In this document: positions 6,266-54,169 of the stretch, piece by piece | Layout of the letters: the number at the start of each line of letters is the position of its first letter | Position numbering within the stretch: position 1 is the first letter of the stretch | Assembly (NCBI GenBank): GCA_973895155.1 | Contig: OZ316893.1 | Span: 19,782,857-19,846,856, forward strand | Source of the DNA: Marsupella aquatica | Lineage: Eukaryota; Plantae; Marchantiophyta | Reading direction: 5' to 3' | DNA length: 64,000 bases | Program-made: the position numbers and the translations under genes | Notes under the pieces: generated by a model | Told to the model about the DNA's origin: nothing | The model's input: only the letters and a program-made list of their open reading frames with translations | Database searches by the model: none

Positions 6266-6546
6266 AGAGTTAACATAAGTTGACTAGACTTTTCATGAAA
6301 GGATAACCCTCTTTGTATCCCTTGGAGAGAGAGCACTTAGTGGAGAACTTTGTATGTCAGAGAGAGATAGAGAGAGCTTGGACCATGGAGTTATGGTGAT
6401 ATGTACTTTTTGTGCTCATAGTGAAGCTCTTGGTGCAACCGTGGACCTAGCCCTGACGGTGTGAACCATGTAGCTTTGTGTTGGTGTACTCAAGTATTGT
6501 ATGAGTGATGATTATGAGATGTGATGTTGTCCATTTTGATCCTACA
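6266..6546 (+). repeat. 5' LTR of the copia element, missing about 50 bp at its 5' end
   Basis: Aligns by eye with 11397-11683 (shared GGATAACCCTCTTTGTATCCCTTGGAGAGAGAGCA and others) and ends in ...GATCCTACA just before the PBS. Confidence 0.85.
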
Positions 6547-6548
6547 AT

Positions 6549-6560
6549 TGGTATCAAAGC
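6549..6560 (+). promoter_or_regulatory. Primer-binding site (tRNA-iMet type) of the copia element
   Basis: TGGTATCAAAGC, 2 nt after the LTR-terminal CA; one mismatch to the canonical TGGTATCAGAGC. Confidence 0.85.
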
Positions 6561-11313: not shown

Positions 11314-11346
11314 CAGCTAGCTCAAGGCTAGAGTCAAGGGGAAGTT

Positions 11347-11683
11347 TGTTAGGGTTTTGACTCAACCTTGGCTAGGTTAACTAGAGTAAGCTAACCAAAG
11401 TTAACATTATTTGACTAGACTCTTCATGAAGGGATAACCCTCTTTGTATCCCTTGGAGAGAGAGCATTTAGTGAAGAACTTTGTGTGAGAGAGAGAGAGC
11501 TTGGACCATGGAACTTGGACCATGGAGCTATAGTGATATGTACTTTTTGTGTTCATAGTAAAGCTCTTGGTGTGACTGTGGACGTAGCCCTGACAGGGTG
11601 AACCATGTAGCTTAGTATCGGTGTACTTGAGTGTTGTATGAGTGATGATTATGAGACGTCATGCTATCCATTTTGATCTTATA
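11347..11683 (+). repeat. 3' LTR of the copia element
   Basis: Starts TG directly after the PPT, ends ...GATCTTATA (CA mutated to TA), and matches the 5' LTR. Confidence 0.85.
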
Positions 11684-13200: not shown

Positions 13201-13519
13201 GCGCCTAATCGAATTGTTTGGAATTCCGAAATTCAAGAAATTATTTTATCAACAAATAGTGGACAAATTGGTATCTTACCCAATCATGCTCCTCTGTTAA
13301 CAGCTTTGGATATTGGAATCGTAAAAATACGTCTTAAGGAACAATGGTCCACGATGGCATTAATGGGTGGTTTTGCTATGATAGAAAATAATCAAATGAC
13401 TATTTTAGTTAATGAAGCTGAAAAAGCAAATGAAATTGATTTGCAAGAAGCTCAAGATACTTTTCAAAAAGCTAAAACTAACCTGGTTCAAGCGGAAGGT
13501 AAAAAACAAATTATTGAAG
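13201..13519 (+). pseudogene. atpE: Nuclear insertion of plastid DNA (NUPT): internal fragment of chloroplast ATP synthase CF1 epsilon subunit
   Basis: Open frame [60 protein letters not shown]...AEGKKQIIE with AT-rich plastid codon usage. Lacks the start codon and C-terminus, has no transit peptide, and the flanks are unrelated. Confidence 0.93.
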
Positions 13520-14159
13520 GACTTTGGCCATATGAAGGTCAATTTTTTTTTAATCTCAAAATCAACATGAGAGCTAAAAGTAGAGCAGAGCACAGAGAGC
13601 TTGCACTGAGCAAGAGATGAAGAATTGAATCAACTACTAACATTGAGTGGGCTCAAGTAGTTGTGCAACAAGTCTTCTCTTGCCCCCACATGAAATGCTA
13701 AGGTTAGTGTTCGCTCATCAAACATTTAGCCTGGGGCCAAGAAAAACCGACGTCAACTTTTGTATTTTACTTGGAATCTCCTGAATACCTAAAAACCTCC
13801 ATGATGGGCAATAGTGTTAGAAACAAGAGCATGATAACATAATCTGAGTTTTGTCTAGTGACTCGGGAGGAAGAGCATAGTCCATCAAAAATTGAGCACA
13901 AGAGAGAATGAAGGGCTCACTACTAGTAAGCACTACTGAGCAACTAAGCATGCACAATATAATGTTGTAGCCTTCAGAAACCAAGCACCAAGCAAGGGTA
14001 CAAAAACTAAGCACAATGAGAGAGCCATGGGCCCTCAGTCCAAGTAAAAATTAGTGAACCCCCTGCAATCGTGACCTCATTGCTCTTACCCCTTGTTATT
14101 TCTGTTTTTCTATAAAAAGTTGCCTTGTTACCGGTAATATTAATAATTATTAGTTCAAA

Positions 14160-23951: not shown

Positions 23952-26271
23952 GTCCCTCCTTCGCGACCGCAGTGAAGTATGTACTACTGTGGTCAAGTTG
24001 GTCGCCTGTTGTTTCGTCACAGCTCTGACCTGGTTGAGGCTGCTTCCCTCCTCCCTTCCTGATCGCAGTGACTCACGACTACTGTAGTAGTAGTCATTAA
24101 AAGGTGCTCCTCCCATGTTCCGGTTCGTCACCTCTCGCACCCACTTCCGCGCTGCTTCGGCTCAGCTGCTTCCGCCCTTCCTTCCTTGCTTCTTCGAAGA
24201 ATCGTCTCACCACCACCAAGCCAGCGGGGTCTTCGCCCGTTCTTTCCCATTTCGTGCAGTCGTGGATTGCGAGGTGGGCTGATTGATGGATGGGATGGAT
24301 GGAGGGAGCCCGGGGGAGGGAGGGAGGAAGGCGGGGGAGGGATTGATTGATTGATTCCAGAGTCCAGACTGCAATTCCGCTTTGTGCGGTGGATTGATTT
24401 GCGGCAGGAGGTGGGGCGGCGGGCAGGCCTACGTATGACTGTGCGCCGGAGCGGAGAGCATCGAGCGAGGGAGCAGGCAAGGACGGGGAAGTTGATGAGC
24501 ATGATGCGGTCGTAGCGGAAAGTGTGGGAATATCTGCGTACTTGTACTTGTCCGGAGTTGCATTTGATGTGCTTGCGCTCTTGGGTTTCCTTCCGTGATG
24601 CGGAGCAGAAGCAGCAGGAGCAGTAGCTGGAGGTTGTGATTATTGTGTGGAGACTTGGGAGCTGGGAGTTATTAGTCAGCGAAAGTGATTGCAGTGGTTG
24701 CTGTGGTGTGGAGAGCGAAGCGGTTGTTGTGAAGACAGTGGAGCGTGGATTGATTTTGGGAGGGATCAAGCGACTGCGCCGACGAACGGACTGGCCGTAA
24801 CGCGGGGTGTGAGATACTACAGAAAGGACGATGACTTCAGGATCGCGTTTTGCTCGAACGACCACGTCCTCGGAGCCTCGAGCATAGTTGTGGTCGTCCT
24901 TCGTCCTCGGATGATCTGACCGTAGCCCCGTCGTATCTTTGTTGTTACGGATCTTTTTCGGGAGTTTTAGGAGCAGTAGGGTTGTTCTTTTAGCTCCGGC
25001 TGCGGCTGTGATTCGGACACTGACACAAGGAACTGTAGAATTCACCACTGGTCCGCTTCAGCAGTGATCTTGCCAGTTTTGGCATTGGCCTCTTCGGGTG
25101 GAACACACGGGATTTCGATATCTCTGGAGGGTGTATTTTCCGTGATTACGGTGGAAAGGAGCGATATGAGGTCGCACCCGGGAGGAATTAGGCGACGTAT
25201 CGGTTGAGATACCATACAAGACAACGAACAGAAGATTTGGAGATTTGAGGACGGTGAGTTCTTCTCATGGACATTCTAGGAAATTTACCGTTTGTCCCCA
25301 GATCTCCGTACTGCAGATGGAGTTGCACTGTTTACTCTCCAGCCTGCTTCATTTCGTCTACACATTTATTGAATGAGCAGATGTTTGCGTTAATTTCCGC
25401 ACCAGGTTGTCCTCATGTTTGGGTCATCGGAGTTCTTGTGCTCTCAGCTGCTTTAGATTGAAGTGTACGGTGGTTGAAGTCAAACTTTGGAAACCACGCG
25501 GGTAGTGTTAGCTCAGTGACACACCCGTTTCAACCCATGTCTCGTGGGAACAGCAGTGTACCACCGTGTTGCACCTGCTTTCTGTTTCTAGTTGCCTCGC
25601 TGTGCCGTGGAAGGTGAAGTTTTCAGCCAAGAGATAGTTTGGTTCTCGTGCTTTCATGACGATTGTCATTGCACCTCGTTTCTCGTCTACTCCACTTCAC
25701 TTCAGCCCTGTTTCGACTGAATGACACGGACGGGTTCCTGAGTAGGTCTTGGAGGCGGAGAATTTGATTGTCTGATAGCTACGTAACGCTCGCCACCTAT
25801 CGCGAGAACAGTGAATAGGAAGGTGATATTAGATAATTCGGTCAAGTATTCACTACGATTCGTTGGAGTGTCAGTTGGGGTCGTTTCCTTCTACTTGTGT
25901 ACGTCAACCCTCTCTCGTTGGAACATTGTCCTGTGACTCTGCAAGCAATGCTACTTCCCTCGAATCCCAGCTACACGTGTTCTTGGTCAGAGTAGCTAGT
26001 ATTCAACCCTCTCGACCGGGCGATGGCCTGAGGTAAGTTCTGGTCGCCTCAGTGAATTCTCTCGGGCAACGTGTCCGTTCTGAGGATCCAATGAACTCAG
26101 TGACCGAGTCTTCATGGTTTGCTATCATGTTGTGCCAGATGCTTCAATTAGTTACGCACCCAGGCATGGGCTTGACGGTTGATAGACTTTTTACCTTCAC
26201 TGCTCAGGGTCAAGCAAGGTCGAGGTTGGTGCTAGCGGCGGTGAGGTTCATATGATGCTGAATACGACGAC

Positions 26272-28939
26272 ATGGTTCATGCGACGACAATGACTCTCGT
26301 GATGGCGGAGAAGGATCCACCCGTTTTCCGTGACTTTCTTGGGATTGGCCGTAAGGATGAGTCTACAGCTAAACAGATGCAACCCTCCATGGGTTTTTCG
26401 AAGAGAAACAACAGCGGTTTTGACGAGGACGGAGAGGCCGAAACTTCTGCCAGAGCATCATCTGGAAACAGTGGGCGTTTGGAAGCAGGCCCTGCTCCTG
26501 GGCTCTCGACGCCTCCGTTTGGTATTGGATTTCCCACCACCTCGGAGCCAGGCTCAGGTAAGGGTCGAATGATCATGGGTATATACGTTTGGACTCGGAT
26601 CGCCAATGCCTCTCAAAGAGAGCTGATGGCAGCCTTGAACCTTTTCCGTTTCTCTGAGTATCCTAGCCTTTTTCTGATGCCTACTAGGGGCGATTTTGAG
26701 AAGAGTTATCTCGTTGTTCTGGGACGTATCGTTCAGTCTAAGTAATTCGTCGCTGACACTTCGGTTTATCTGCAGAGGGTTGGCAGCGAGCTAGATCTGG
26801 AGTAATTCAGCATCATGGAGTGAAGAGCGCTTTCTACAAACCTGAAATTGATACCAGGACCATGAAGAGAAGAGAGAGTCCTATCGGTAGGGAGTCGTTG
26901 CAAGAGCGTCTGCAAATGAGTGTGGAAGCTCTCGAGAATTCTCGGCCTCTGAAGGTGCAAGAATTTGGTTTTTCAGATTGATTACTGTTTCATGCGGGCT
27001 TTCTCAGAGGAAGCGTGGGGTTCAAGATGTAGGATACTGGGTTGAATTGCATGTTGTTCTTCATCGATGTTTGATATCTAGGGCATCCGTCATAGCTCTT
27101 CTCTTTTAGCATTTTTTTAAGCGCAATTAGTCGGTAATATCCTTTGAAGGGTATCAGTTTTCTTGTTGTGTGAGAATTGTACTTACCAAAGACACTAATT
27201 TCTGCAGGCGGCCCGTATGGATGACAAGAAAGGAAAATTCAGGACAGGAACACCGTCGATGGATGAGCTGCGTCTTAGTATGCAACCTCCGCGACCCTCC
27301 TCTAAGGGCCTCGTCACGTTGCAAACTAGTGTGGCTAAGACAGAAGTCATTCCAAGAGGCTCTAGTAAGCAGGACCGGTCAAAGACTCCGCTGAATGTTG
27401 GCGGGTCTACCCCTGGGCGGCTTAGCCACATGGGTATGTCGTCGGAAAGGCCGTCCGGTCAGCTTGGAATGGAAACAATGGGATTATCTCCGATTCTTCC
27501 TCCTGCGGCTGACGAAGGATCACGAACTGGTATTAAAGGTTCAGGTTTGTTATCCAGTCTGCAGCAGCAGACTGTTGCCCCATCATCGCAAGTGCCCGGC
27601 ATGTCAGGAGGACCAAGCCCCAGTCCGAGGAGACCGAAGGTTTCCACTCACAGCCCCGGACCAGACACCGCGCTGCCGTCTAGGTGAAAACAGTTGCTCA
27701 CATACTTATGTTGCAAAGGATTTTTTTCAATGCACAGATCCTTGTTTTCTTGTTAGTAGTCCCTCGTTTGCTAAAGCTTCACCCTTGCAAATTTGTGCAG
27801 GCACCCCAAACCTCCCAGTCGACAGCTAACCATTTTCTACGGTGGGGAGGCTCACGTGTACGACGATGTTCAACCTGATAAGGTCAGAACCGGTTAGACT
27901 AGATGTGGGCTCATGGAGGAGAGAGCACTAGAAACAGACAACGCTTGAGTTTATCTACTTGCACAGCTCATACGGTTAATTTTCCCGTTTTCTCACGAGA
28001 ACTTATTTCCATTTTGCCAGGCAGAACAGATCATGCAATTGGCGAGTTCTAATGGCAGATCTTGGTCAACCACTTACTCACCACGCCAAACAGCCAGCAT
28101 AGCGAACTCGGCCAGTGATGGATCACTCTCTGCTATGGAAAGGGAGAAGAATTTCAACTTCAGTAGAGGGGGCTCCGTTAGTGGAGGAAATTTGGCACTG
28201 TCGCCTGAAGTACAGACTTTACTTAGAGGTCTAGCACAATCTGGTGCTGGGAGGAGCGGGCAAGCCCCCCCTGATGCAGCGACTACACCATCGAGTGCGG
28301 AAATCCAGCTTGCGGTAGCTGGTACTTCACTGGACCTTATCTTTTTGGGAGATGAGTGAGACAGGATTTAGACGTCAAAACTCACTGCAACGGATTGGAT
28401 GTTGCAATGTAATTTAAGGTCCACAGTCTTAAGGAAACAGATGAATGCTTTGCAAGAATTTGCCGTTGCAGAGGTATGTAAGTTGTATAAAATACTTGGA
28501 AACAATGCTGGAGAGTAAAGTGTAAGTGGTGGCAATGCAGAGCGAGTCGCCGCGGCCACCAATGGAATTAGGAAAGATAGCTTAGAGAGAAGGGTTCTAA
28601 CACGGCCAAGTCCATGCACAGAAGACAATGCTGAGGTAATATTCGTTCCTTCTGTTTTTAAGCTCCTTCCGAATTGATTGTCTCCGTGTGCATGTTCAAG
28701 TCCTTGAGTATCAGACAGTGGTCGCAATCTTTGCCCCTATCGCAATATCTGTCAATGCGATTTAGAACGAAACTTTCACACCAGTTTTGGCTCTTGTGTA
28801 AATTCAGCTTCTGAAAGTTTCTGTGTAGAAATTTATTTGAAGGTGACGGAGTCATCAAACGGTATGCTACTCCTCTTTGCCTTCGTAATATTGAATCTGA
28901 TTTGTGCAGGCTTTGCTTCGGGGCCAGCATTGGATGTAA
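26272..28939 (+). CDS. TIFY8: TIFY/ZIM-domain transcriptional regulator, TIFY8 class (multi-exon)
   Basis: Phase-consistent GT-AG exons 26272-26557, 26776-26954, 27208-27683, 27801-27882, 28021-28321, then tentatively 28541-28635 and 28910-28939 (alternative: read-through to a stop at 28359). Spliced TIFY domain QLTIFYGGEAHVYDDVQPDK/AEQIMQLASSNGRSWST and N-terminal VFRDFLG resemble TIFY8. A GC-rich leader exon probably ends at a GTGAGT donor near 25254. Confidence 0.88.
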
Positions 28940-35600: not shown

Positions 35601-37701
35601 TTTTTTGTAAGGGATTGCTTGTAGCCGCAGTGGCGACAGCCCATTTTTTTTTCTGAGGAGGACCAGCAACCAGGATAATTGTAAGGTTTTTGCTCACTTT
35701 GGTGTAGAATGTCACCTTGTCGGAGAAGATGCTACGAATACTCCTTATTTAAATTTCTTAGATTAATCGGACATCGCCCTACATTCCAGGATAATGGGTA
35801 TGTGGATAGGTAAGAAATTGGCTAATAAAAGGCAAAAAAGTTGGCTAATTTCTGTCATGAATGACTGACATTACAAAAATCATTTTGGGCCATTTTGATG
35901 TAAACCTTGGCGTAGGCGCGTAAAAGCTAAATATGCTTATACCTTGAATTGAATACATTCTGGACAATATATTAAGAGGAGGGTTGACATAGCAGGAACA
36001 TGACCAGGAACACGACCAGGAACAGAAGGAACAAGCAACACGAGAAGATGTGACAAAATGTCGAGAAACAAACCAAAACACAATGACGACAAAACAGGTT
36101 CCGAACGGGTTCCATAAAGGGCGGGCACATTTGAATTTTGAAAATTCTTTTAAAAGTTGTATACATTTCGGACAATGTATTCATAAAAGCAAGGAGGTTG
36201 GGGGAGGTACTGTGCTTGCAAGCTCCAATGCAGTGGTAAACTATTTCCTTTGTATCTTGAACACTAAAGTGACAGTGTATTCTCAAATACTTTGAGGTTG
36301 GGGCACAAAGACACTTGCATGCTCTAATGCCGCAGCAAACTTGTTCAACTGTAATTTGAATACAATATCCATATTGTATTCAACAAAACTAGGAAGCCAT
36401 GGCGCTGCTGCACTATGGTGCTTGATTGCGGTCAAGGGCTACAGTGCTTGTGCACTGCAACGTTATTGTCGGACTACTACACACGACCAACCACGGCGTC
36501 CACAAGGTACGCAGTGGACTTGAACTGTGTGGTAAAGTGTTTCACAAGAACATAGGTGTACGGAGTGGGCCCAGAGGTCCATTGGGAGAGAGGGTGCAAC
36601 TTTTGGTCTGTTTAAGTAAAAAAGTTGTATTTGGAGGTCCACTAAATATATTTCTCTTGGCAACCTTATGGAACCATCTTTCAGGAGGGGGGTCATCTCT
36701 CCCCACCAAAGCTCTATTTCTTGGCGAGCAAGAGTTTTATTGTGGCTAACACGGACCAAGTTGAAAATTAGAGTTAAAGTCACATGGGAAATCTTCAGGT
36801 CAAGATTTGCAGAATTTTTGCAATAATAAATAATCCCACTAATAAGGAGATTGGCAAGGGAGGGTGGGGTCCAGTGGGACAGATAGAAAACCTGGCTCAC
36901 CCAACCATTAGGATTTTTGGCAAATTGCCAAACTGTAAGCTGTGTGTTTAGGCAATTTAAGAAAAACCCTACAAATCTCCTTTGTAAAAGTTAAGCCCTT
37001 AAAAGGGGACTGAGCGCAACATCAAATACTTACAGTAGTTTCATGCACTTATTATAGAAAAATTGACAAGCATTTTGGAGATTGGCTTTCAATTTACATT
37101 AAACATATATACAAAATGTTAATGTGATTGTACATCCAATATTTTAGGGGAAAATTATTGATCAGGTATCACAACAACAAAATCAAATAAATGTAGAAAT
37201 TTGCACTTGTCTACTCTATTCTACATGAAATAAGCATCAAAATGACCCAAAATATGATTTATGTGATGTACTTTACATATAACAGTGTTAGATAGAAAAA
37301 AAGACTACGAGTGTAGATTTGCAGAATGCTTAAATAGATAGATAAGAAAGAGCGAGCAAGATTACATATTTTAACGAGGCTCTCCTCAATCATTCAAGTC
37401 TCTGGTACGTTTTTGGCAGCCAACAAAGAAAGCATTCAAAAGGCTAAAACCTTACGAGACATTCCTCTGTCTCTCGTCTCCTCTGTCTGACCTAAACCCT
37501 CCCTCACTGATGAAAGCAAGCAAGCAAGCAGACGCTCGTGAGCAAAATTACAGCATCCGTCAATCAACACCGAAAGCTCTGTTGTAGGAATGCTGCAGCT
37601 CCTTCTTCTTGTCGACGCCTTCTGGAGCTGGCCAACTGAAGAAGCGAGTCGTGGGAACAAGCGATCACAGCTCAGCTGAGCGGGAGACGGAGCAACGGAC
37701 G

Positions 37702-39749
37702 ATGGGTAGCAGCACGGACGTTCTCATGATAGAAGCGTCGCCCCAGCAATTGAAGCAAGGGCGATGGCGAAGCGGCGTCACGGAGGATCTGGTTGACGCG
37801 CTGCCCTACATTGACAACGATTACGCGAATCCAGAGCTGAAAGCGGAGGTGGACAAACTTATCGAAGATGAAATGCGGAAGAGCACCAAACGGCCCAAAG
37901 ATTTTCTCGCCGAGCTGCCGCCGGCGCCCACTTTCGATTTTGAGGTGCGGTTACAGCCTTTTACAGTGCCCTACATGGTTGATGAAGCTGGCTTTCCTTA
38001 CACTGCTCTTCTTACTATTTCGTCCAGTTGGTAATCTTGAAACTGTGGAATTTGAAAAGAGATTTTATCGAAGTCCTTCAGGCTGGCATTACTCTGTTTT
38101 TAGCTTCTGGGTGGTTAACTGTACTGTTGGGACGGGTTTCAGAATTGCCCCATGCTAGCAAAAGAATATGAACGAGTGCGTGCTGGCAAACCTCCCGTGT
38201 TGATTGACATGCTTCGATACGGATTAGAGCCACCTCCTGTGAATAGACGAAACGACCCTAACGCTTGGAAGCAATCCCTACAAAACGCTCAGAGCCAACT
38301 ACAGCATCAGACCATAAGGTATCTTATTTCTACCCTGGTCGTTCTGATCTTTCTGGATGCCCGGCAGAATTGCTGTCCACTTATATCTATTCAGCTGAAC
38401 TTTGAGCTTCATTACTTTCTACATTGTCAATTAGCTATTTCGACATCATGGTTCTCTTAATCCCTGCGAGTGAAATTGAATAATTTAAAGACATTGTTGC
38501 TCCGAAATTCAATCTCGATGTTTTTATACTTTCCGCTGATAGATGGGCACGACTCATTTCCTGTCTTAGTTTTTGTTCCCCTATTCTCTGGCGCAAATGG
38601 ACACTCATCAAATAAGGTACCTGACTGGTTGGAATAGGCTTGAAAATCTGGAGCTTATGTTAAAGTATGGTCCCAACGCTTGGAAGGTCCATAATCAGAA
38701 TTTGGAAGCGCTCATTGCCAGGTATGAGAAAACCTTTCGAAGCAGCCTTCGTTGAGATACTGTGCCGAATCTTGCAGAAGACTTTCAATACCACGTTAGG
38801 GCCTTCCACTTATCTCTCAGTGATCTATTATTTTGAGTTGTTGCCCAAAACCCCACTACAACCTTCTGAAACAAGGGTGACTGTGATGACTTTCTTCAAA
38901 TCGTCAATAGGGATTCATTTAAGGGTTGATGGTTCCCCATCTGATTTGGAGGGTGCTTATGCCAGGTTACAAAGAATGATACGTGAGACAAGTTATGAAA
39001 TTGAGACCTTGAACCGCGAAAGAAAGTCAAATCAGGTGAGTGCTTGTGTTCGAGTCATTTATCATTTGTTTTCTAATGAAAAGGAGCATCGCACGATTTA
39101 CTTGATGAGTATTTAAATAAATTAATTAATTAAAAGGGGAAATCTGTGAAACCCCACAGAAAGGGAACAGTCAGTCACAATATTTGAACACTAGACCTAT
39201 CAGTCTCAACGCAAGTGAGCTACCAGCCATGCCTCTCTGGGCACTTGACGAGTATCTAGGTCTGTGCACACCGCATTTTATGCCTCATCCTCGTGGGTTT
39301 CATTACACCTTCCTTGAAGATTGGTAATAGATTTCTATGCAGTCAAGACACTGGTGGTGGTGTTATTACCGTGGATGCAAGAACCGAAGGTTCTGGTGGT
39401 TGAGCTTTTGAGTTGTACCCACAGCTAGCTGCTGCTGCAGAATTGAGTCTTCTGGATGCTCAGTGGAAGGAGCTGACCGAGAAGAATCTGGAGATTGAGG
39501 ATGCTTCCTTAAACCTGAAGGCAGAGGTAGATAAGCTACGGCAAGAGGCACTGAGCAAGTAAGCATTATTCTTTTGGTATTCCAAAATTTTGCAGCACAA
39601 TTTGAGGATACTGTAGCTCTTTGTGCAGCTTTTCGTATTCTTAGGAGTCCCTCTATTAAATTAATCGCTGTACTTGTGATCACTCTGAGCTGAAAACTGT
39701 GCATATCTGCAGAGGCATTGATCTCACGGACCGGTTAGCCCCACGCTAA
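37702..39749 (+). CDS. MOS4: Pre-mRNA splicing factor SPF27 / BCAS2 / MOS4 (Prp19/MAC complex subunit)
   Basis: Six phase-consistent exons: 37702-37944, 38143-38318, 38638-38721, 38966-39035, 39425-39558, 39713-39749. Motifs [35 protein letters not shown] and QWKEL..KNLEIE are characteristic of the family. Confidence 0.95.
39113..39242 (-). mobile_element. Short SINE-like element, copy 2, in intron 4 of SPF27/MOS4
   Basis: Reverse complement matches 19982-20116 (shared GTGGGGTTTCACAGATTT, AGACTGATAG). Flanked by ACTTGA(T/C)GAGTAT at 39100-39112 and 39243-39255. Confidence 0.65.
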
Positions 39750-42640: not shown

Positions 42641-43912
42641 AGACCAAGTTGTCATTTGAATTCAAACATTTCTTCATAACACAACACCTGGGCATTGTGT
42701 TTATTTTAAGTTGGACACTATGGTTGAGCTTACTTCTTTTCAATGCAACTCACTTCTATGCCTTTCAGTTTGACTCAAGTAAATTCAAATGTCACTTGAA
42801 CACAAATGCCAATTGTTGAAACACAACATGGCAAGTACAAAAAACTAAAACAGATCCTCAACACCTGAGCGCACTGTTCAAATAGTGTGTCCCACAGCCC
42901 ACTATTTGAATAGAGCTCCATGTCATGTGTTCCGGGAAGACGACAACAATGCAAGTGAAGAAAGGTGTGCCACCCAATATATAGCTATTGCACAAGGAAC
43001 TTCAATGTAAGCTAAAAGTTTAAGCAAGACACCATTAATTGCAACTGTGAAGCGACATTGTTCCTCTGTATTTTCCTGACTGGGGCAAAATTGTGTGGCT
43101 CTTCTTATTGGCGACGTTGTTGTGAGAGAGATCCCAATCATCTAACACACAAACTTCAGTTTCGTATTAAACCTTTCATAGGAGAATCCCATTGTCATTG
43201 TCCATTGTGTTGAATTGCTGAGTTGCGGAGCCCTCAAATCCCTAGTAGATACTCTAGCCCTCCATCACTACAGAGCTTTCACCTCCAGATGCTCTATATA
43301 GTAATATGTTGAACAAAAGGTTTAAACAAAACCTCAAAAAAATATTTTGAAAACCAACACCAATTAGTGTTATTTTTGCTTCTGGATCAAGTTCACATAA
43401 ATTAGTGTTACTAACACTAATTTAGACATAACACTAATTCTGGCATAACACTAATTACGGTTAAGAGTGCAGTTCATCTCACACAAGACTCTACCAAAAT
43501 TCCCCATAAGTCAGCATCTGGCCAGATCATTGTAGCTAGACATTGACTGACAAGGGTACAATTTGTACTGGGTTGTGGTAACTTCACATAAAAAAGCAGC
43601 AGCCAGATATAGAAGGAAAAACACTCAGTGACACAAACAAACAATCAAGTTTATCATGGGATCAACAAACCATTCAACTGGTGGACGTTGCCACATAGCA
43701 CAATACACTGCATGCTTCTGCTTTTTGATGTGCAATTACCGTTAGGTGTACTATTCCCAGGCTAGATTTGGCAATTGAGAATGCTTGCTTGCTTGTTGTA
43801 TTTTGGTTGTAACGAAGGTGTGTCATGCTTAATGCCCTCCATGATTTTTCTCTTTGGATTCTTTTGGTGCATTCATAGAGTATAAATTTCAAGTCCAGAT
43901 TTGTATGAGGGT

Positions 43913-44244
43913 TGTCACACCATTCTGAGTAGTGTAGTAGTATATCATGTTATTAGAGTATGTACGTTTGGTATGAGTGCTATTGGAGCCGATAAAGTTC
44001 TGTCAGGTTTGTGTGAGAGGGTACTTCTCACTTGTGAGGCATTGAAAGGTCATCTTTCAATGTTGAGTCTTGGAGAGAGAGGAGCTTGAGTGTGGCTATG
44101 GTGGCTGTGAGCTCCGCTTGTGTAACGTGGATTCCTTGAGTAGTGCAAGGTGCGTTGGCTTGACATACGTGTGTGATCGGATCGGTGCGGGATCGATGGG
44201 GTATTGTTGACCGAGATCGTTGTGCCGATTGTATGGAGATTACA
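43913..44244 (+). repeat. Terminal repeat B1 (R/U5-like part of the LTR, 332 bp)
   Basis: Matches 53302-53631 with about five differences by eye, all transitions. Ends ...GAGATTACA. Confidence 0.95.
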
Positions 44245-44253
44245 TTGAAAGAT
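44242..44253 (+). promoter_or_regulatory. Putative self-priming primer-binding site
   Basis: No TGG tRNA-type PBS after the repeat. ACATTGAAAGAT is the exact reverse complement of ATCTTTCAATGT at 44052-44063 inside B1. Confidence 0.6.
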
Positions 44254-44512
44254 CACATTCGAAATCTGCTGTACGGACTGTGCGGACAGAAGTTCAATTG
44301 ATTGAGTTGTTGACGGTTCGTGGTAGCTCGGATCGTGTGTTGTTATCGAACAGATCGTTGGTATCTTGACCTGTATCGTTGTTGTCCGATCGGCCTACTT
44401 CCCGATCGATGTACAGATCTGTGATTGGTGACAGGTTTTGAGTTGGAGGTCGATTGATGATTCGTGGAGGAAAGCGAATGTTGAGTAGATGTTGGACAGT
44501 GGAAGTCGATCC

Positions 44513-45015
44513 GTGAGGCTTCAGATCCGATTGCCGGCTACTGTGAGGCTTCAGATCTGATTGTCGGCTACTGTGGGGCTTCAGATCTGATTGTCGGCTA
44601 TTGTTGGATGATGTTGGCAAGGCGCAGGTGAAGCGACGACTCTTTTCCTGAAGGAACTGAGCTGCCAATGCCCCGTGCGACGGTATCATCATTTCAGTGA
44701 AAGAAATGAGGGTCAAAGGTGTTGAATCAAGCTGCTGCCAATTCTGTGGAAGAGCTGCGTTTTTCATGAAGGAAATCGACAGTTTTCGGGAGCTTTTCGT
44801 GAAGGAAGTAGTCGTTTTTGGGGTCAGGTGTGAGGCGCACGAGGTCACCCATCCCGAAAGTGCTCCCAACCGCGAGCACGAAGTCACCCATCGCGAGCGC
44901 AGGCAGGCGCGAGGTCGAGGTCACCCATCCCGGGGCTATTCCGGGCCGTGAGCGCGAGGGGAGGCACAAGGTCGAGCGCGAGGAGATCACCCATCCCGGG
45001 GCTATTCCCAGCCGC
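44513..45015 (+). repeat. Tandem repeats in the retrotransposon leader
   Basis: Three 30-bp units GTGAGGCTTCAGATC(C/T)GATTG(C/T)CGGCTACT (44513-44600) and four GA..TCACCCATC units (44841-45015). Confidence 0.85.
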
Positions 45016-48000
45016 GAGCGCTTAACTGGCAAGTTCTCATCCCACCTTGTGTACACACAAGCTTTGACAACTTGTTGTTTAGGTTCAAGCGCCAGGGGGC
45101 TTTATACACTTCCCGATTTGTTTAGAGGTCTATTCTAGGCCAAATCAGAGGCTGTTTTAGGGTTTTTGATACTTCTGAGTCCATCTAGACTCACAGATTG
45201 AACCAATTTTGCCTTGGTTCTCATCTACAACATTGGAGTGCCATTGTGAAGCCTATTATGAAGGCTCTTCCTTGAACCTTATGCACATTGTCATATTGAT
45301 TTGCATTTGCTTTTGTGTGGAGAGTTGAATGGTATCCATTCTTGTTTCTGGATCCTCTTCACACATGTTTCCTGTTTATGCGCCATGTTAGTTTCGTGTG
45401 GGCGCTTGATTCCATAGGAATGATCCGGGTTTGCAACTAGACATTCTAGTGTGCTGTGTATTTCTCTCTTGGTGATGTTGGAGTGATGCCCAACACACCA
45501 TGGTGAGTGCTTGTGGTGCTGACAGGGATAGATTGCCCTTAGGGTTAGCACATAGATTAGGTTAGGGTTGGTCACCATAGATTCTTCTGGTGCTGCTGGA
45601 TTACCCGATGGACGACGAACCGGTTTCACTCGGAGTGGGGCACAGTTTCGGCCAGCGGCATTGGTAGCAGTCAGCAGTGCAGCTTCAGACAATGATTCTG
45701 ATGAGGACTCAGTGACCAGTTCTCCTCATCATCAGGTGGTTGCACCTTTGTTGTGGGATATGGACGAGATGTACGGGGCTACAAAGGGCCCACAACGATA
45801 CTCTGGTGCAGTTGGCACAATTGATCTGGATGACTTCATCCAGGAGTTTGATACGTGGTGCGATATGCAGACATTGCGTAACGTCACGTTGTTTACCCCT
45901 TTCATGGCATGGAAGGGATTATTCTAGCATTTGGAGGGGCCACCCATGGATGACTACCATGAGTTTCGGAAGGCTCATTTGGTTGAGATTGAGGCATGGA
46001 GGCAGCATTGGTCGCCTAATTACGTGTCCATCACCTATGGCACTAGTGCGGCTGCCCAACCCATTGCCACAGCTGCTGCTTCTTCTAGCAGCACTAGCCA
46101 GAGTGGCACACCATCCACCAGCAGCACTCCAGCAGCATCCACCACTACTCCTGCCGGTGTGATTGTGACAGAAACTGGAGTTGCGCCAGCATTTAATCCT
46201 GTGGTGGAATTCTTTGAGGTACTGAAGCAGAACTATCAGGGTGTGAGAACTGATAAGTTGAAGGGTCTTCAGGAGTTCCAACGCAAGACTGGAGAGAGCC
46301 TACGTGAGGCATACACACGTATGCGCAGATTGATCACTGTCACCAAGGGAGTGACAGAGGCTCAGGCAGTCCAGTTTTGGTATGCAATTCTGGACAGAGA
46401 ATTGCGACGCAGAGTGAGAGATGTCACTCTGCTTAGGGATGCAGATCCCACATTAGCAGTTGTTTTCACCCTTTCTGAGCGCATTGAGCTCAATATGGTG
46501 AATGAGAAGGTGGTGACTTCCGGATTTGCCAAGGAAGCACCAAAGGCTGCATCTACATCCACACCACAGCCTACTGCACGGAAGAGCCAGAGGGAGAAGC
46601 CTACTGCACGAGAGTCTACCAGCCAAAGACCTGTGCCCTCTTATGCTGGACAGCAGTCAGGATGTTGGACCTATGGTGGGGATCATGCACAGAGATATTT
46701 TCCAGATCATAGAGGATCAGGGGGAGCATCAGCGCCTGATCAGCGACAGTGTGATCACTGTGGAGCTCCTGGACACACCAAGGATAGGTGTTTCTCACTC
46801 CACCCTGAGTTACGAAGAGGAGGATCCCGTACACATGATCAGGGAAGAGGAGGAGGAGGTAGAGGTGGTGGACGTGGTCGTGGCATGCCACATGCAGGGA
46901 GACAGGGAGGTGACACTGCCCCTGCTGTAATCATAGATCCCAAGGATGCTAAGATTGCTCAATTGGAGCAACAACTAGCTGCCATGGCTAGTTCCCAGGT
47001 GAGACCTAATTCTGGTGATGGGGCATCTACATCCTATGGACCTTCCACATCCCATGGTCCTTCCACATCTTATGGAGCTGATGGAGACCTTGCCACCATG
47101 GAATTCATGTGTGGCACTGCACATATTGATGCATCAGCAGCTTTGACATGTGGGGCAGCCAAAGCTCTTGAGCCCCGAGGAGCAGTAGTGGAGTTGGATC
47201 CACAAAGGGGGGATGCACGTCGGCAGACAAAGCTTCCTCAGTCTTTTACATTGTCAAAGACAGTTCAGACTGCCTCTATGAACCCGATTCGGACAAACCC
47301 TGATGTGGGTAAGTTGGCAGAATCAGGTAGTGATGCAGCAGGGATGACAGGTACCTTGCTGGGGGCGGCTACTGCCATAGTACGCACCCCATTATTTTCA
47401 GCGACAGACATGCTGAACTTGGGAGTTGGTCCTGCAGAAGTGTTCAGATTGGCAGCTACACTTTGTGAGGACACTCCAGTGGTTGTTTCCCATGCAGAAG
47501 CAACTTGCAGTGTTGATGCAGTGAAGACCATGCCACCTACTGCTACTAGTGAGACATGGCATGCAGCAGCAGCGAGGTTGGTGGATTTACCAGCACGCCC
47601 TGCATTTGAGAGGACTAGGTTTAAACCTAGTGTTGTGTCATTGGATAATCGGAGTGGTATCTTCCGATTAGTTGGGTCTTCTGGAGCAGTATACCAGCCA
47701 AAGAGAGTGTTACTGGATACTGGTGCTCAGCCCTTGATGTTGGGGAAGTCTGCCATACATGGATTGGGATTGCGTCCAGAGGATTTGGAGGATTGTCCCT
47801 TTCCCATTCAGACTTCATTGGGGGGACCTACACCTACACAGCATATCACCAGGAGACCACTTGATTTGAGAATTCAGGAAGGTCATACCATAGATAGCTC
47901 ACAGATACAGGCGCGAGCTATTCTGACTAAGGCAGAGTCATATGATGTGTTGGTGGGATGTACAGTGCTCTACCCCATGGGATTTATTCTTGATTTTTGG

Positions 48001-48423
48001 GAGGAATCAATGTCATATAGACCTGATTGGCAGTCAGGAGATGCTCGATTGAGCAAATTGCCAGTGAGATTTAGTGGACCTGTGGGAGGCCCTAAATCCA
48101 CATCATTGTCTTTGGCAGCATTCAGTGGTGTAATTGCTGGACCTGATGATTTGATTGAGGGTAATGCGCATGCAGCCAATGTTCCACCATTGGAGGAGTC
48201 TCATGAGGAGCACATCATGCGAGGATTACCTGTTGGCAGTGTTGTGCCACCAGTGTGGGGCGCTGCACAGGCCTTGCCACAGGCAGCAGCACGATTGGTA
48301 CATGATGTATGGCGTCATGCTTTTACACCACAGTCAGGAGCAGAGCAGTCTCTTGCAGATGGACCTGTGACTCTTTCACCATTGGATACCACTCCTATTG
48401 CTTGGCAGTATCCACCGGAGGGT

Positions 48424-49380
48424 ATTTGTTTGTTGGATCTTTTTGGTGGGATTAGCACTAGATTGGCTGCTGTTCTTCAGGCAGGAATTCCTATGCGTCG
48501 TTATTTGTATGTGGAGACAGATGAGACAACACGGAGGGTCTCATTGCAACATGTGGCTATGTTGGTGGATAGATATCCACAGTTGCTGCCAGTGGATGCT
48601 GTTCGTGGTTATCAGCATGCACTACCTGCTGATATTTCATTGTTGGGGGCGGATCATCTACATCGTGTTGGCCCCATTGATTTGGTGATTGCTGGTTGGC
48701 CATGTCAGGGCCAATCTAGAGCTGGCATTGGGCATGGACTTCATGATCCACGCTCTGCATTGTTTTGGGAGATGTTACGGGTGCTGCGTCATCTCCAGCT
48801 ACATCAGACACAGTCTCCAGCATACATTTTGGAGAATGTGCCATTGTTAGGTGATGATCGTAGTCGGATTGTTGCCAGTGTTCACCAGGTGAGGTCTTGG
48901 ATTGGACCTACTGTGTTATTGGATGTTGCACGTGTGGGTTCTCGTGCACATCGTCCACGCTTGTGGTGGACTAATTTGATCCCATGTGAGGTGCTGAAGC
49001 GCGCATTTGACAGCATTCCACGCTCACCAGCCTTAGTGGTGGATGATATTTTGGATCCAGGGCGTCGTGCATAGGGTGTGACCCAACCTGATAGACCTCC
49101 ATTGGCAATGGTCAATGCAGTTGGGTGCCCACGTTGTGCATTACCCACTCTTGTAAGCCACTCTGCTTCATATGCATTCAGAGCAGGTGGCCCTGGACTT
49201 GTATGGGACACAGCTCTCCAGCAGTTAGTGAAGCCTACTGCTGATGAGAGAGAGCGTGCTATGGGATTTTTGACTGGCACCACTGCAGTTGCCTCTATGT
49301 TAGAGGGTTTGCGGCGCCAGGTTCTTGGTCAAGCAATGGATTTGAATTGTTTGACTTGGATTATCAGCTTGGGAGTAGCT
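48424..49380 (+). other. C5 cytosine DNA methyltransferase domain inside the polyprotein
   Basis: Motif I LLDLFGGIST, motif II YVETD, motif IV IDLVIAGWPCQG (catalytic Cys at 48703-48705), motif V DPRSALF, motif VI ILENV (48832-48840), motif VIII HRPRLWWTN, motif IX ERERAMGF, motif X LGQAMD, all in canonical order. Confidence 0.93.
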
Positions 49381-52300
49381 GAACAGTTGCGGATGTGCTC
49401 TGCCGGAATTACTGATTGTCCCTTGGTGAGCTTGCGGTCCACTGAGACAGTATTGACCACAGCTGGGGGCGAGCAGATAGTCCATGGACCTATGACAGGA
49501 TTGGCGGGTGGACAGATTGTTGAGCAGGAAGGGACTGCTCAATCTACTGCTAAATAGCAATCATCGGCTATCTCTTCTACCCTACAAAGAGATATTAGGG
49601 ATTTGGTGGAGAGTTGGGAACCACAGCTTGGCCCTAAGTTAACAGGGGAGGAGAGACGTCACATGCATCGATTCCTGAAGAGTTATTGGAATTGTTTTGC
49701 ATTCAGCATGAAGGATTTGGGGACATTGAAGGGCCCTGGTATTCAGATTGAATTGGCTAGTGATGCGCCAATCTTTCGTAGACCATACCGTTATAGTGAC
49801 ATGGAGAGAGCTCTGATTCAAAGCAGAACTCAAGATTTGTTGGAGGCTGGATTGGTGGAGATTTCATATGGGGAGTATGCATCTGCCACAGTGATGCCAG
49901 CCAAGAAGGATGTGCATGGCAATTACACAGATAGGCGCATGTGTGGTGATTACAGACCTATTAATCGCCAGAAAAAATCTGATCGATATGCCATGCCCAC
50001 ACCTGAGGAGATCTTTGATACTGTGGGGCATGCAAAGGTTTTCAGTTCATTGGATCTGAGGGCAGGATACCATCAGCTTCCAATTAGGCATGCTGACAGG
50101 TCCAAGACAACATTCTGGGGGATTGATTCTTATGGCAAAGATCGTTTGTATCAATGGTTATTCTTACCATTTGGGTTGAAGAATGCACCAGCTGAGTTCC
50201 AGAGAGTCATGGATCGAATCCTTGCAGGTTTGGATTTTGTCAGATGTTATATTGATGATATTTTGGTCTATTCTTCTACTGTGGAAGAACATCAGCAGCA
50301 CTTGCAGATTGTGTTGGAGAGATTGAGAGCACATGGGTTGAAGCTCCATCCTAGCAAGTGTAAGTTCTTCCAAGACCAGATTGAGTATTTGGGCCACACC
50401 ATATATCCAGGGGGATTGGGTGTATAGCAGACTAAAGTGGAGGCCATTACACAGATTCCTTGTCCTATTGATGTGAGTAGAGTTCATGCATTCTTGGGAT
50501 TGGCGAGCTACTACAGGAGGTATGTTAAAGGATTTAGCCAGCTTGCTAAACCTTTGACCATACTCACTAAGTTGGATCAGAAATGGATTTGGGGTGATGA
50601 CCAGGAGCATGCCTTTTAGGAGTTGAAGCAAAGGTTGGCATCATCCCCTATTTTGAGAAGACCCATTTCAGGCAGACCATTTCAGCTACACACTGATTGG
50701 AGTGGAGTAGGACTTGGAGCAGTGTTGACTCAAAAGGATGATGAGGGGAATGAGTTTGTTGTGGCTTATGCCAGTAGATCAAACAATTCAGCAGAGGCTA
50801 AGTATAGCTCTTATGAGGGAGAGTGTTTGGCAGCAGTGTGGGCTGTTGCACACTTTCGTTGCTACTTGTTTGGTAACCCCTTCACCTTGATCACTGATCA
50901 TCAACCTCTTAAGTGGTTAATGGAGTCTGACAAGCTTACAGGGAAGCTTGCACGATGGGCATTGTTGTTACAGGAGTATGATTTCCAGGTGGTGCATAGG
51001 CCTGGAAAAGTGAACTTGGATGCAGATGGATTAAGCCGCAATCCATGTACCAGTCAGCAGGATGAGACTGGAGCCAGATGGCATGATGAGTCAGATAAGG
51101 AGATGGTGCCAGGATGACATGCATCTGCCTTTCTTTGTTGGGTGCCAACATACAGTGGATCTGTGGACTCTACCTCATTGGATGGAGTGGATGATGAGTC
51201 TTCAGATGTGGATGTTGGTGAGGTAACTTCTGGACAACAAGATATTCACAATGATGTGAGAGTGTTGGAATATTTGCGCAATAGTTCTATTGTTGGCAGT
51301 GTTGATGCCAAGGAACGTGACAGGGTTCTACAGAGAGCCAAGAGGTTTCGATGGGAGGGAAACCATCTTTTGAGAGTACTGCATGATGGTAGGATGTTGG
51401 TGGTACCAAAACCATCACAACGAGTACATTTGGTGCGACATGCGCACGAGGAGTTGTGTCACTTTGGTGTGAAGCGCACTTACAGCTTGCTGCAGACACA
51501 GTATTGGTGGCGTGGTATGCACACTCATGTCCAACAGTTGATAGCTAAGTGTGTGGTATGTGATAGAGTGAGAGCATCATTTAATGCTCCCACTCCCCAG
51601 TTGCACCCGTTATCGATCATGGGTTTGGGATATCGTTGGAGTTTGGATTTTGCTGGTCCATTACCTCTTACCCAACGTCATAATCGCTATGTTTTGGTCA
51701 TGGTGGGGCACTTCTCCAAGTGGATTGAGCTAGTGGCGTTGCCAGATAAAGCCAGTGGAGGAGTTGCTGCTACATTTTTGGATCGTGTACTCAGTCATTT
51801 TGGAGCACCAGCTGAGGTATTGACTGATCAGGGAACTGAGTTCCGTGGAGAGTTTGAGAGTTTGTGTGAACAAGCTCTGGTTGATCATCGCACTACCTCT
51901 CGTGATCATCCTGAGGCAGATGGATTAGCTGAGAGAGTTGTGCAAACTGTGAAGAGAGGATTGCGTAAGTATGGCTTGCAGGTTGGTCATCTGGGAGATT
52001 GGGATCTCCAGCTACCTTGGTTAGCTATGGGCTACCGTTTCAGTCGGCAAACATCACTTGCATCCTTCTCACCCTACTTTTTGCTCTATGGTAGAGAGCC
52101 AGATTTGCCAGCAACTATTCGTCGTCATGCTGCACCAGTTGTGAACTTGGATGATCCTGATGTTTGGGTCAAGGTGTGTTCAGAGAGAGCACGGGTATTT
52201 CAGAGAGTGATGCCCATGGCTTTTGACAACCTTGCCATTGCCCAACATCATGATACTTTGAGGTATGCCACTATTCGTGGAGGAGGTTACCGTGCAAGCA

Positions 52301-52542
52301 TTCGACGATTTCATCCTGGTGATTATGTTTATTTGCAGCAGACAGCACTCACGACACTTGATGTGACCGCAGGCCGGACAATCTTACGTGTGCGTGAAGT
52401 GTTGCCTTCTGGTGTCCTGATGTTGGAGGGACGCGATGGTATGGTTTTGAAGGATCATGTGCGCAACTGTGCACCATGTCACCTTCCCAACATTGATGGT
52501 ACAGTAGATCCAAGCTTGGCACATGTTCGTGCTGGCTTGAAA

Positions 52543-52677
52543 TGTATGTTGTGTGAATCTGCTCAGGGAGCAGCTACTATGTTGATTTGTGATAAGTGTT
52601 CTAGAGGATGGCACATGTCATGTTTGACACCACCATTGCAGGTGATTCCTAGTGGATCATGGTTGTGTCCTCAGTGT
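52543..52677 (+). other. PHD finger at the integrase C-terminus
   Basis: CMLC...LICDKC..GWHMSCL.PPL...P.GSWLCPQC gives a complete C4HC3 pattern. Confidence 0.93.
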
Positions 52678-52846
52678 CGGTGAAGCCGACTAGTATCATT
52701 TGTGTTCTCTTGGCAGATATGGATTGCAGGTAGGTGATCGATGGGGCTCACTTGCACCCGGCCTCCTGATCTTCACACCTAAAAAAGTGTATATCAACCT
52801 TGTAGAACTCATGGCTAGCTAGAGTTAGGGGACCTTACTCCCAGCT

Positions 52847-52856
52847 AGGGGGGCGA
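52847..52856 (+). promoter_or_regulatory. Polypurine tract of the gypsy element
   Basis: AGGGGGGCGA ends 1 nt before the TGT that starts repeat A1. Confidence 0.75.
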
Positions 52857-52857
52857 T

Positions 52858-53299
52858 TGTGGGTTTTGGACATGTGTGGACATGAGTTCCACTTGTATTC
52901 CATTCTCTTGTATTTGTGCTCAGGGGTCTCACTATACGGATGCCTCCCTATCACCTGCGACGTTTTTAGGCCTCGGACCCCCTAAAATGTAAGAAATTTT
53001 TTTATTTTTTCAACCCCTATAAAGTTGGAATATTCTTGGAATATTCCAAAATTTTGGTTATAAGGACCCTAAGTCTTCTTATAAGTCTCAAAATTGGATT
53101 TAAAAGACCCTATTGTTCTTCTCAGTAAATTCTTAAGTCTTCCCTTTGAACCAATAAAATGACCCTATACTTCGTCGCACGTGATATGCCATTTTTGTGG
53201 AAGTGAAACCCCCGAGTATTTGTGATGTGGCAGTGTGACTATGTCTGGATGTATGTGACAAGCGATGTATGTTGTGTAGCGATATGTATGCGCACGACA
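52858..53299 (+). repeat. Repeat A1 (U3-like, 136 bp, interrupted by a MITE)
   Basis: After removing the 298-bp insert and one 8-bp duplication it equals 53633-53768 in length and sequence. Confidence 0.93.
52919..53216. mobile_element. 298-bp MITE with 8-bp target duplication (hAT/P-like)
   Basis: TIRs CTCAGGGGTCTCAC / GTGAAACCCCCGAG (12/14 match), TSD TATTTGTG (52911-52918, 53217-53224). The empty site is visible in A2. Confidence 0.92.
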
Positions 53300-53301
53300 G
53301 T

Positions 53302-53631
53302 TGTCACACCATTCTGAGTAGTGTAGTAGTATATCGTGCTATTAGAGTATGTACGTTTGGTATGAGTGCTATTGGAGCCGATAAGGTTCTGTCAGGTTTG
53401 TGTGAGAGGGTACTTCTCACTTGTGAGGCATTGAAAGGTCATCTTTCAATGTTGAGCCTTGGAAAGAGAGGAGCTTGAGTGTGGCTATGGTGGCTGTGAG
53501 CTCCGCTTGTGTAACGTGGATTCCTTGAGTAGTGCAAGGTGCGTTGGCTTGACATACGTGTGTGATCGGATCGGTGCGGGATCGATGGGGTATTGTTGAC
53601 CGAGATCGTTGTGCCGATTGTATGGAGATTA
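53302..53631 (+). repeat. Repeat B2
   Basis: Copy of B1 lacking the last CA. Separated from A1 by GT and from A2 by one T. Confidence 0.95.
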
Positions 53632-53632
53632 T

Positions 53633-53768
53633 TGTGGGTTTTGGACATGTGTGGACATGAGTTCCACTTGTATTCCATTCTCTTGTATTTGTGATGTGGC
53701 AGTGTGACTATGTCTGGATGTATGTGACAAGCGATGTATGTTGTGTAGCGATATGTATGCGCACGACA
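53633..53768 (+). repeat. Terminal repeat A2
   Basis: Uninterrupted copy of A1. Ends ...GCACGACA followed by GGGT. Confidence 0.95.
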
Positions 53769-54169
53769 GGGTATCACAAAAATTATGGACTAGATAAAAA
53801 TCTCTTAGGTATTGAAAGGTATTTGAGCATTAATATGGACAATAATAGCCCCTCAAAACCCAAGCTGAAGCCCTCATTTGCTTGGGGCATTATGGCTCAC
53901 AATGCTTTGTAAACAGGACCTTGAGGTTGGAGTCACACACTGCGCTCTAAAGTTAGAAGTTGGTTGCAAACAATTGAGGTCCAACAAAATCAAAGAACAA
54001 CCTTGTTGGATTTTGGACAGATTGATATTCAACAGCAAATGCCATCCTGGTTTCCTGGCCTTAGAGCATCCCCACCCGTACCCCATAGGCAGTCACTATT
54101 GGCCAAAGGGGCAAGGTGGATGAGCACTGGCGGGCCTGGGCAGTAGACTGATCAGGCAAGGTTCTCAAG

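Follow-up and report, generated by a model that had tools for sequence, protein, structure and literature searches.

A Ty3/gypsy retrotransposon of the liverwort Marsupella aquatica carries a DNMT3-like C5 cytosine methyltransferase (DNMT) domain, and sequence comparisons place this element in the land-plant (bryophyte) branch of KnitGypsy-Dnmt3, the element known from the alga Klebsormidium nitens. The window, that is, the whole 64,000-nt stretch of DNA analysed here, holds one decayed copy, and further relatives were sampled from metagenomes as 80 loci representing 62 distinct insertions. In this family the methyltransferase lies at the end of a Gag-protease frame, parted from the reverse transcriptase (RT) by a conserved stop codon.

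Gypsy-DNMT3 was reported in 2018 from Klebsormidium (PMC5890265), and later sources mention a "streptophyte" Gypsy-DNMT3 (PMC12344493; 10.64898/2026.05.21.726589). The species table of the 2018 work includes Physcomitrella and Selaginella and leaves out Marchantia and Sphagnum (PMC5890265). According to a 2019 account, land plants such as tracheophytes have no transposon-encoded methylases, which were lost after the move to land, and the bryophyte elements contradict the broad form of that statement (PMC6338049). In the accessible text of the literature searched, no bryophyte case, readthrough stop, or priming or integration signals were found; supplementary trees from 2025 and 2026 could include bryophytes. 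No mention of a bryophyte Gypsy-DNMT3 was found in the accessible text of PMC9985172, PMC11982613, PMC8557442, PMC6317226, PMC6453930, 10.1101/2021.02.12.428880 or 10.1101/2021.11.30.470311.

Why a retrotransposon would carry an enzyme that silences it has been a question since 2018, and the algal hosts are difficult to handle. The annotations of Marchantia polymorpha, a genetic model, include long, motif-intact Gag-protease-DNMT open reading frames (ORFs), such as Mp_4g09160 and Mp_8g17980, and the question is therefore directly testable.

The element and its methyltransferase domain

The element extends over ~9.9 kb, from 43913 to 53768, in the arrangement A1-coding-PPT-B1-A2-B2 (PPT, polypurine tract), and is flanked by GGGT duplications (Table 1). 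Its domain order (Gag, protease, RT, RNase H, integrase), DDE integrase, TG...CA ends, target duplication and PPT are those of Ty3/gypsy. There are no two identical long terminal repeats (LTRs) around the coding region; instead, the repeats are arranged as A-coding-B-A-B, and relatives also occur as A-coding-B. By Pfam match, the RT, RNase H, integrase and PHD finger follow the DNMT in the same frame, and the best PDB matches of the PHD finger are CHD4, KMT2D/C, PHF12, PHF21A and ATXR5. The 1.3-kb leader between A1 and gag contains three GC-rich, imperfect 42-nt repeats (44840-45023).

Table 1. Features of the Gypsy-DNMT3 element in the window
Feature	Position	Strand	Basis or remark
Left target-site duplication, 4-bp GGGT	43909..43912	+	matches 53769-53772
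Repeat A1, starts TGTCAC, element 5' end	43913..44241	+	differs from A2 at 5 of 332 nt, by transitions only
Segment in A1 complementary to bases just 3' of A1; putative RNA 5' end and self-primer	44049..44063	+	pairing over 15 nt, 1 mismatch
Putative self-priming primer-binding site, first bases not TGG as in a tRNA site	44242..44256	+	complementarity and folding
ORF1 Gag-protease-DNMT, start uncertain, premature stops 45925 and 49072	45556..49554	+	intact relatives of 1.2-1.45 kaa with the same end
CCHC zinc knuckle of Gag	46750..46791	+	seen in translation
Aspartic protease, DTG at 47716	47590..48100	+	PF13650 E 0.003, under the Pfam cut-off; conserved in relatives
DNMT3-like C5 cytosine methyltransferase domain, broken (Arg 48460, stop 49072)	48424..49380	+	PF00145, motifs; fold of relative P0002
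Conserved in-frame stop TAG CAA TCA (CAR-YYA context), putative programmed readthrough	49555..49563	+	relatives; consensus in PMC2754532
Reverse transcriptase, YIDD, premature stop next at 50425	49600..50424	+	Pfam RVT_1 E 4e-34
RNase H, flanked by premature stops 50617 and 51115	50620..51000	+	Pfam RT_RNaseH E 2e-38
Integrase, H2C2 zinc finger and DDE core	51412..52320	+	Pfam PF17921 and rve
C-terminal PHD finger and Pol stop	52543..52683	+	Pfam PHD E 2e-10
Polypurine tract immediately 5' of B1	52847..52855	+	same tract in L040, L050, L078, L054, L056
Repeat B1, split by MITE, end CGACA	52856..53299	+	repeat comparison
MITE-like insert, 298 nt, presumably hAT-like, 15-nt terminal inverted repeats, 8-bp duplication	52919..53216	.	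within B1
B1/A2 junction CA-GT-TG, putative internal integrase attachment site	53298..53303	+	CA-NN-TG in L007, L040, L050, L078, L054, L056
Repeat A2	53302..53630	+	repeat comparison
Repeat B2, starting base as in B1 after the PPT, ends CA, element 3' end	53631..53768	+	repeat comparison
Right target-site duplication, 4-bp GGGT	53769..53772	+	matches left copy

Six stops interrupt the long frame (45925, 49072, 49555, 50425, 50617 and 51115), and all but 49555 are decay. With these five premature stops and an Arg in motif I at 48460, the window copy is dead. The initial annotation had named a stop at 49072 in the methyltransferase; a premature stop does lie there, but it is not the only lesion in the domain, as the Arg replaces a small residue of the SAM-binding motif I and is outside the three commonest residues at that place among 46 relatives.

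The methyltransferase motifs lie in the frame of the DTG protease and in canonical order, as initially annotated: motif I at 48433, II at 48508, IV (AGWPCQG) from 48691, VI (ILENVP) from 48826, VIII (RxR) from 48937, IX at 49243 and X at 49315. The match to PF00145 reaches 42 bits against a curated cut-off of 22 (E 9e-11). No Pfam match to a BAH domain or chromodomain was found in the window element, and with its motifs unpermuted the domain falls outside the DRM, MET1 and CMT classes, which also agrees with the initial reading. A profile built from 20 relatives and ranked against solved structures placed DNMT3A/B/C first (E 1e-20 to 1e-16), ahead of DRM (1e-11 to 1e-9) and of HaeIII, DNMT2 and HhaI (~1e-6). 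An AlphaFold model of P0002, an intact relative, has a pLDDT of 86.6 and aligns with DNMT3A at a TM of 0.83 on the target and ~22% identity, and among the Foldseek matches listed for the model all are DNMT3A/B/C. The family domain can thus be regarded, from its sequence and predicted fold, as a non-permuted DNMT3-like C5 methyltransferase. Its fold and motif order are those of host DNMT3, both animal DNMT3A/B and the enzymes of non-flowering plants such as PpDNMT3b (PMC6453930), but at that identity to DNMT3A it also lacks PWWP, ADD, DUF3444 and introns, and it sits within a retrotransposon ORF. The ESM Atlas yielded generic C5 methylase clusters only. A phage origin was rejected, because phage methyltransferases form a distant outgroup in the tree; viral contigs gave only six weak phage methyltransferase matches, at 30-44% over short stretches.

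Of 46 full-length relatives, 45 retain the catalytic Cys and all 46 both Glu-Asn-Val and the motif X Gly; a stop-free domain is found in only six. Nei-Gojobori estimates of dN/dS for the DNMT between lineages are 0.11-0.27, near the protease value and higher than the RT value, with many of these pairs near saturation; the unsaturated pair L054/L055 gives 0.14. Decayed copies of a single family give 0.36-0.92, as expected after insertion. The family domain is under purifying selection.

Split repeats, and proposed priming and integration

The A-coding-B-A-B arrangement is found in the window copy and in loci L040, L050 and L078, and in part in L007. Among 20 distinct 3' ends, B continues into A in five and the element stops at B in 15, making A-coding-B the commoner form. 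An exact 4-bp target duplication is present around the window copy and around seven of the ten relatives with both ends, and CA-NN-TG stands at the B/A junction even in lineages as low as 50% in identity.

The pairing of the bases after A1 with the segment inside A (Table 1) has a score that was reached in none of 200 shuffles, and the resulting helix is present in both the MFE and the centroid folds, at an overall z of only -1.3. Pairing of at least 11 nt at the expected place, ~27 nt past a TATA-like box and in differing letters, occurs in only 8 of 18 relatives, and the window and the Sphagnum-like family both retain the complementarity despite their diverged sequences. In Tf1-type self-priming, the site after the 5' repeat is likewise complementary to a segment inside the repeat (PMC6317226). 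Tf1/Sushi and Tcn1 share this arrangement but are chromoviruses with ordinary LTR pairs (PMC6317226), whereas the bryophyte family has a PHD finger, a DNMT and permuted repeats.

Given a primer site after A1 and a PPT before B1, the expected product of ordinary reverse transcription is B-A-coding-B-A, and a cut at the internal CA-NN-TG would therefore be needed to reach the genomic forms. The self-priming site, the CA-NN-TG junction and the 4-bp duplications suggest an integrase that cuts inside the LTR. A-coding-B-A-B could arise by a single cut on an end-joined circle, and A-coding-B from a circle with one LTR or by two cuts. The literature searched yielded no description of an LTR retrotransposon whose integration involves a cut in circular cDNA at an attachment site within the LTR.

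A somewhat less probable course of events, and one to be taken seriously, is that the integrase uses ordinary linear ends rebuilt from the internal B/A junction, and that A-coding-B could come later from B-B recombination or assembly collapse. Such rebuilding of ends has been proposed for split-repeat DIRS elements. The circle model also predicts an A-B-A-coding-B form, which is absent from all 19 distinct 5' ends, and B1 and B2 are 113-nt repeats only ~340 nt apart; both points suit linear ends. However, the first base of B2 is the one that B1 has directly after the PPT, most 3' ends are of the A-coding-B form, and the A2/B2 joint of L050 holds filler and a PPT remnant, which fit end-joining of linear cDNA.

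A DIRS identity, drawn from the split repeats, was rejected because an integrase and a 4-bp duplication are present. Integrase and protease both occur and no Pfam match to a tyrosine recombinase was found in the element, so that it falls outside DIRS/PAT. The permuted repeats offer an explanation for the DIRS-like ends of the algal element, and would explain how A-coding-B copies escape LTR-pair finders. In annotated bryophyte genomes, such copies can also push up the number of DNMT genes counted.

The conserved stop and the proposed action of the methyltransferase

The in-frame TAG at 49555-49557 parts the DNMT from the RT in the window. In 60 of the 80 loci the end of the DNMT and the beginning of RT are both visible, and 57 of them have a stop at the same site (TAG in 42, TAA in 15), in frame and 45-66 nt 5' of the RT match; in the other three the stop is displaced by an insertion (two loci) or replaced by a sense codon (L032). 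CARYY follows 53 of the 57 conserved stops, as against 12 of 893 premature stops elsewhere, which served as a control. Random decay was therefore rejected as the source of the 49555 stop. These counts represent about five or six independent lineages and overstate independence, because the loci come down to 62 insertions and 40 of 47 full domains are nearest one Sphagnum protein. The window's TAG CAA TCA fits UAG-CAR-YYA exactly and is in frame with the downstream RT ORF, CAR YYA being the TMV-type (type I) readthrough consensus (PMC2754532). The full CARYYA occurs at only 5 of the 57 conserved stops, with CAACCC at 46. The sole sense codon at the site, in L032, encodes Tyr, which is also the amino acid incorporated when the TMV stop is read through (PMC2754532).

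Intact database ORFs divide at this same stop into Gag-protease-DNMT and a Pol that starts with RT. Since the stop lies between the two domains, the DNMT ends ORF1. The initial annotation had set the DNMT between protease and RT, "made and packaged with Pol". The shared frame is there, but the stop separates DNMT from RT, and the claim of joint production is not supported, the domain lying 5' of it. A conserved stop in this position fixes the dose and the probable site of action of the DNMT. Fused DNMT-RT forms are present among distant relatives, and the stop-separated form is thus a derived variant. The 2018 paper puts the DNMT of KnitGypsy-Dnmt3 in the Pol ORF with RT (PMC5890265), a single open frame that the bryophyte family lacks, having a TAR-CAR-YY stop between the two; in the annotation, one K. 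nitens copy appears as two adjacent genes. Compared with TMV-type readthrough, the bryophyte stop, a putative readthrough site, sits after a protease and a DNMT, and most relatives have CAACCC.

On balance, the evidence leans towards a DNMT that is made at Gag level and packaged, with the stop likely read through and CG sites of the new cDNA the likely substrate. Because the DNMT ends the Gag-protease frame before the stop, the enzyme would match Gag in amount, both in synthesis and in the particle. Most ribosomes would stop at the TAG and yield Gag-protease-DNMT, and a minority would read through into RT, RNase H, integrase and PHD finger. The protease would release DNMT within the particle, in excess of RT and integrase. 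With the folded RNA 5' end as self-primer, the RT would produce linear B-A-coding-B-A cDNA, whose true LTR would be B+NN+A, and the DNMT would methylate this naked cDNA, so that the copy arrives pre-marked. The integrase would then cut the CA-NN-TG within the LTR of circular or linear DNA and leave A-coding-B-A-B or A-coding-B inserts, and the PHD finger could steer insertion by reading the H3 tail. The joint reading, in which an ancient green-lineage Ty3/gypsy family (liverworts, mosses, Marchantia) would combine an active, Gag-stoichiometric DNMT3 made via readthrough with self-priming, cDNA self-methylation and circle-based internal-LTR integration, is rather unlikely to hold in every part.

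Synonymous CG sites in 45556-52683 stand at 0.08 of expectation, and CHG sites, at 1.1, show no depletion. The corresponding CG value is 0.11 in L005, without CHG loss, and 0.30-0.80 in other family members; elsewhere it is 0.36-0.41 in three other elements in the loci and 0.33 in the copia element of the window. As proof of self-methylation, CG depletion was rejected as non-specific: it does not discriminate, because unrelated elements are depleted too, and the host MET1 is another possible cause. In yeast, neither the Klebsormidium domain nor the DNMT3B control produced methylation, a result that its authors call inconclusive (PMC5890265). The enzyme of SymbioDIRS-Dnmt3 from Symbiodinium, by comparison, methylates CG de novo in yeast (PMC5890265). 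SymbioDIRS-Dnmt3 and the EpiLTRs of Cymbomonas and Euglena are likewise retrotransposons with a C5 methyltransferase (10.64898/2026.05.21.726589), but they are tyrosine-recombinase elements or carry DNMT4-related domains with DAM and a chromodomain, and represent independent acquisitions.

It is unlikely that the abundant DNMT instead escapes from the particle, or stays out of it altogether, to act in trans as a nuclear writer on host chromatin, genomic copies or insertion sites. The domain forms a fusion with Gag and protease, both of which are packaged in LTR elements. Gag-level synthesis would greatly exceed the enzyme needed per cDNA, which suits a nuclear role, and the PHD finger hints at chromatin engagement, but this finger sits on the integrase, a separate cleavage product from the DNMT. 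Although the DNMT3 of bryophyte hosts methylates CG and CHH de novo (PMC6453930), the element domain is without the DUF3444 of host plant DNMT3, and the Klebsormidium methylome is ordinary (PMC5890265).

Improbable, too, is a domain retained for RNA methylation, or for binding nucleic acid or SAM as a component of the particle, rather than for writing on cDNA. Such a role would suit the algal relative's lack of DNA activity in yeast (PMC5890265), a Gag-level synthesis that is typical of structural proteins, and the variation of motif IV among 107 full distant relatives (ECQ in 53, PCQ in 37). Against it, the nearest sequences and folds are the DNA enzymes DNMT3A/B, far above DNMT2, and the catalytic Cys, the Glu and motif X are nearly invariant.

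Returning to the stop itself, readthrough by ribosomes remains the likely reading. A low probability attaches to a true terminator, in which case Pol would come from reinitiation or from an RNA that is spliced or sub-genomic, with the DNMT still at Gag level and no readthrough fusion. In Tca2, a Candida element with an in-frame stop, the local context gave no readthrough (PMC2194720), and the Sphagnum-like (CAACCC) family has an in-frame ATG three codons 3' of the stop, so that reinitiation is possible there. But a Met after the stop is not conserved: L054 has none in 100 codons, and the first one lies past the RT start in L005 and in the window, where it is codon 36. The frame is also preserved across lineages at 50% identity, the stop is nearly always followed by CAR (53 of 57), and L032 carries a sense codon at the site.

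Distribution and descent of the family

Protein searches returned 231 near-length and 58 longer relatives. Among the matches listed (120 of the 231 and all 58), the named relatives include M. polymorpha, M. paleacea, Calypogeia fissa, Riccia sorocarpa, three Sphagnum species and the algae Mesostigma and Closterium; no vascular-plant name occurs among these listed matches, most of which are without a name, and absence is not implied. A profile search gave 505 clusters at E 1e-30 or better, among them K. nitens KFL_013780020. The order gag-protease-DNMT-RT-RNase H-integrase-PHD holds in the 80 metagenome loci as far as the contigs reach, a few deleted or interrupted copies excepted.

KnitGypsy-Dnmt3 resembles the bryophyte family in its Gypsy domain set with integrase, its intronless, non-permuted DNMT3-like domain under purifying selection and, according to the legend of Fig. 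4, its DIRS-like split repeats (PMC5890265). The K. nitens protein KFL_013780020 is a protease-DNMT protein, with the DNMT after the protease, and gives a collinear full-length match (35% identity over 323 residues, E 1e-54); the adjoining locus tag encodes an RT-RNase H-integrase protein. The bryophyte family differs in occurring in liverworts and mosses, not algae. The self-priming site, CA-NN-TG junction, 4-bp duplication, A-coding-B form and PHD finger are undescribed for KnitGypsy-Dnmt3 in the accessible text of PMC5890265.

The window element nests with bryophyte-named elements in both RT and DNMT trees (support 99-100), and its RT falls in a clade with Klebsormidium and Closterium elements (support 0.96). 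Bryophyte and Klebsormidium domains are joined with weak support in the DNMT trees, the one cited being a quick tree, and plant host DNMT3 is not among the sequences in the trees. The initial annotation had left open inheritance from algae or independent capture. Inheritance from the algal lineage is favoured, because of the post-protease position, the split repeats, the RT clade and an identity of 35-40% to algal transposon domains as against ~22% to DNMT3A. Independent capture of a host DNMT3 by the bryophyte elements is highly improbable: DNMT3 has been captured more than once (PMC5890265), and the weak domain support and the missing plant host DNMT3 leave some room for it, but the collinear K. 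nitens match, the shared position, repeats and RT clade, and the relatives in Mesostigma and Closterium all speak against it.

An algal or contaminant origin of the window element is unlikely, because its junctions are clean, its surroundings hold TIFY, BCAS2-like and copia sequences, and it nests with bryophyte elements. With this, the initial proposal of a retrotransposon-borne C5 methyltransferase in a land-plant-type Ty3/gypsy family is borne out by the PF00145 match, by an order kept across the loci and by relatives in Marchantia, Calypogeia, Riccia and Sphagnum, and by the dN/dS ratios that point to purifying selection.

In a large sister group (P0165, P0167, P0264-P0285 and many of P0331-P0469), the homologous DNMT lies between RNase H and integrase, in the order RT-RNase H-DNMT-integrase-PHD, and its motif IV is often ECQ. 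This group forms one clade, so the DNMT has changed place in the polyprotein at least once. Elements of the chlorophyte Tetraselmis (P0299, P0312) have a diverged DNMT-like stretch 5' of RT, and the family may therefore predate the streptophyte split or have moved sideways.

Other features of the window, all on the + strand, include a decayed Ty1/copia-like element at ~6268-11681, with terminal repeats 87-91% identical and ~5.13 kb apart, and a plastid-type atpE fragment at 13090-13620 (Pfam ATP-synt_DE_N, E 4e-23), apparently a nuclear insertion of plastid DNA. A TIFY gene with introns lies at ~26245-28400 (QLTIFYGG near 27823), which we take to be TIFY8-like, and a multi-exon BCAS2/SPF27-like gene, with a weak Pfam match (E 0.017), lies at ~37588-39116.
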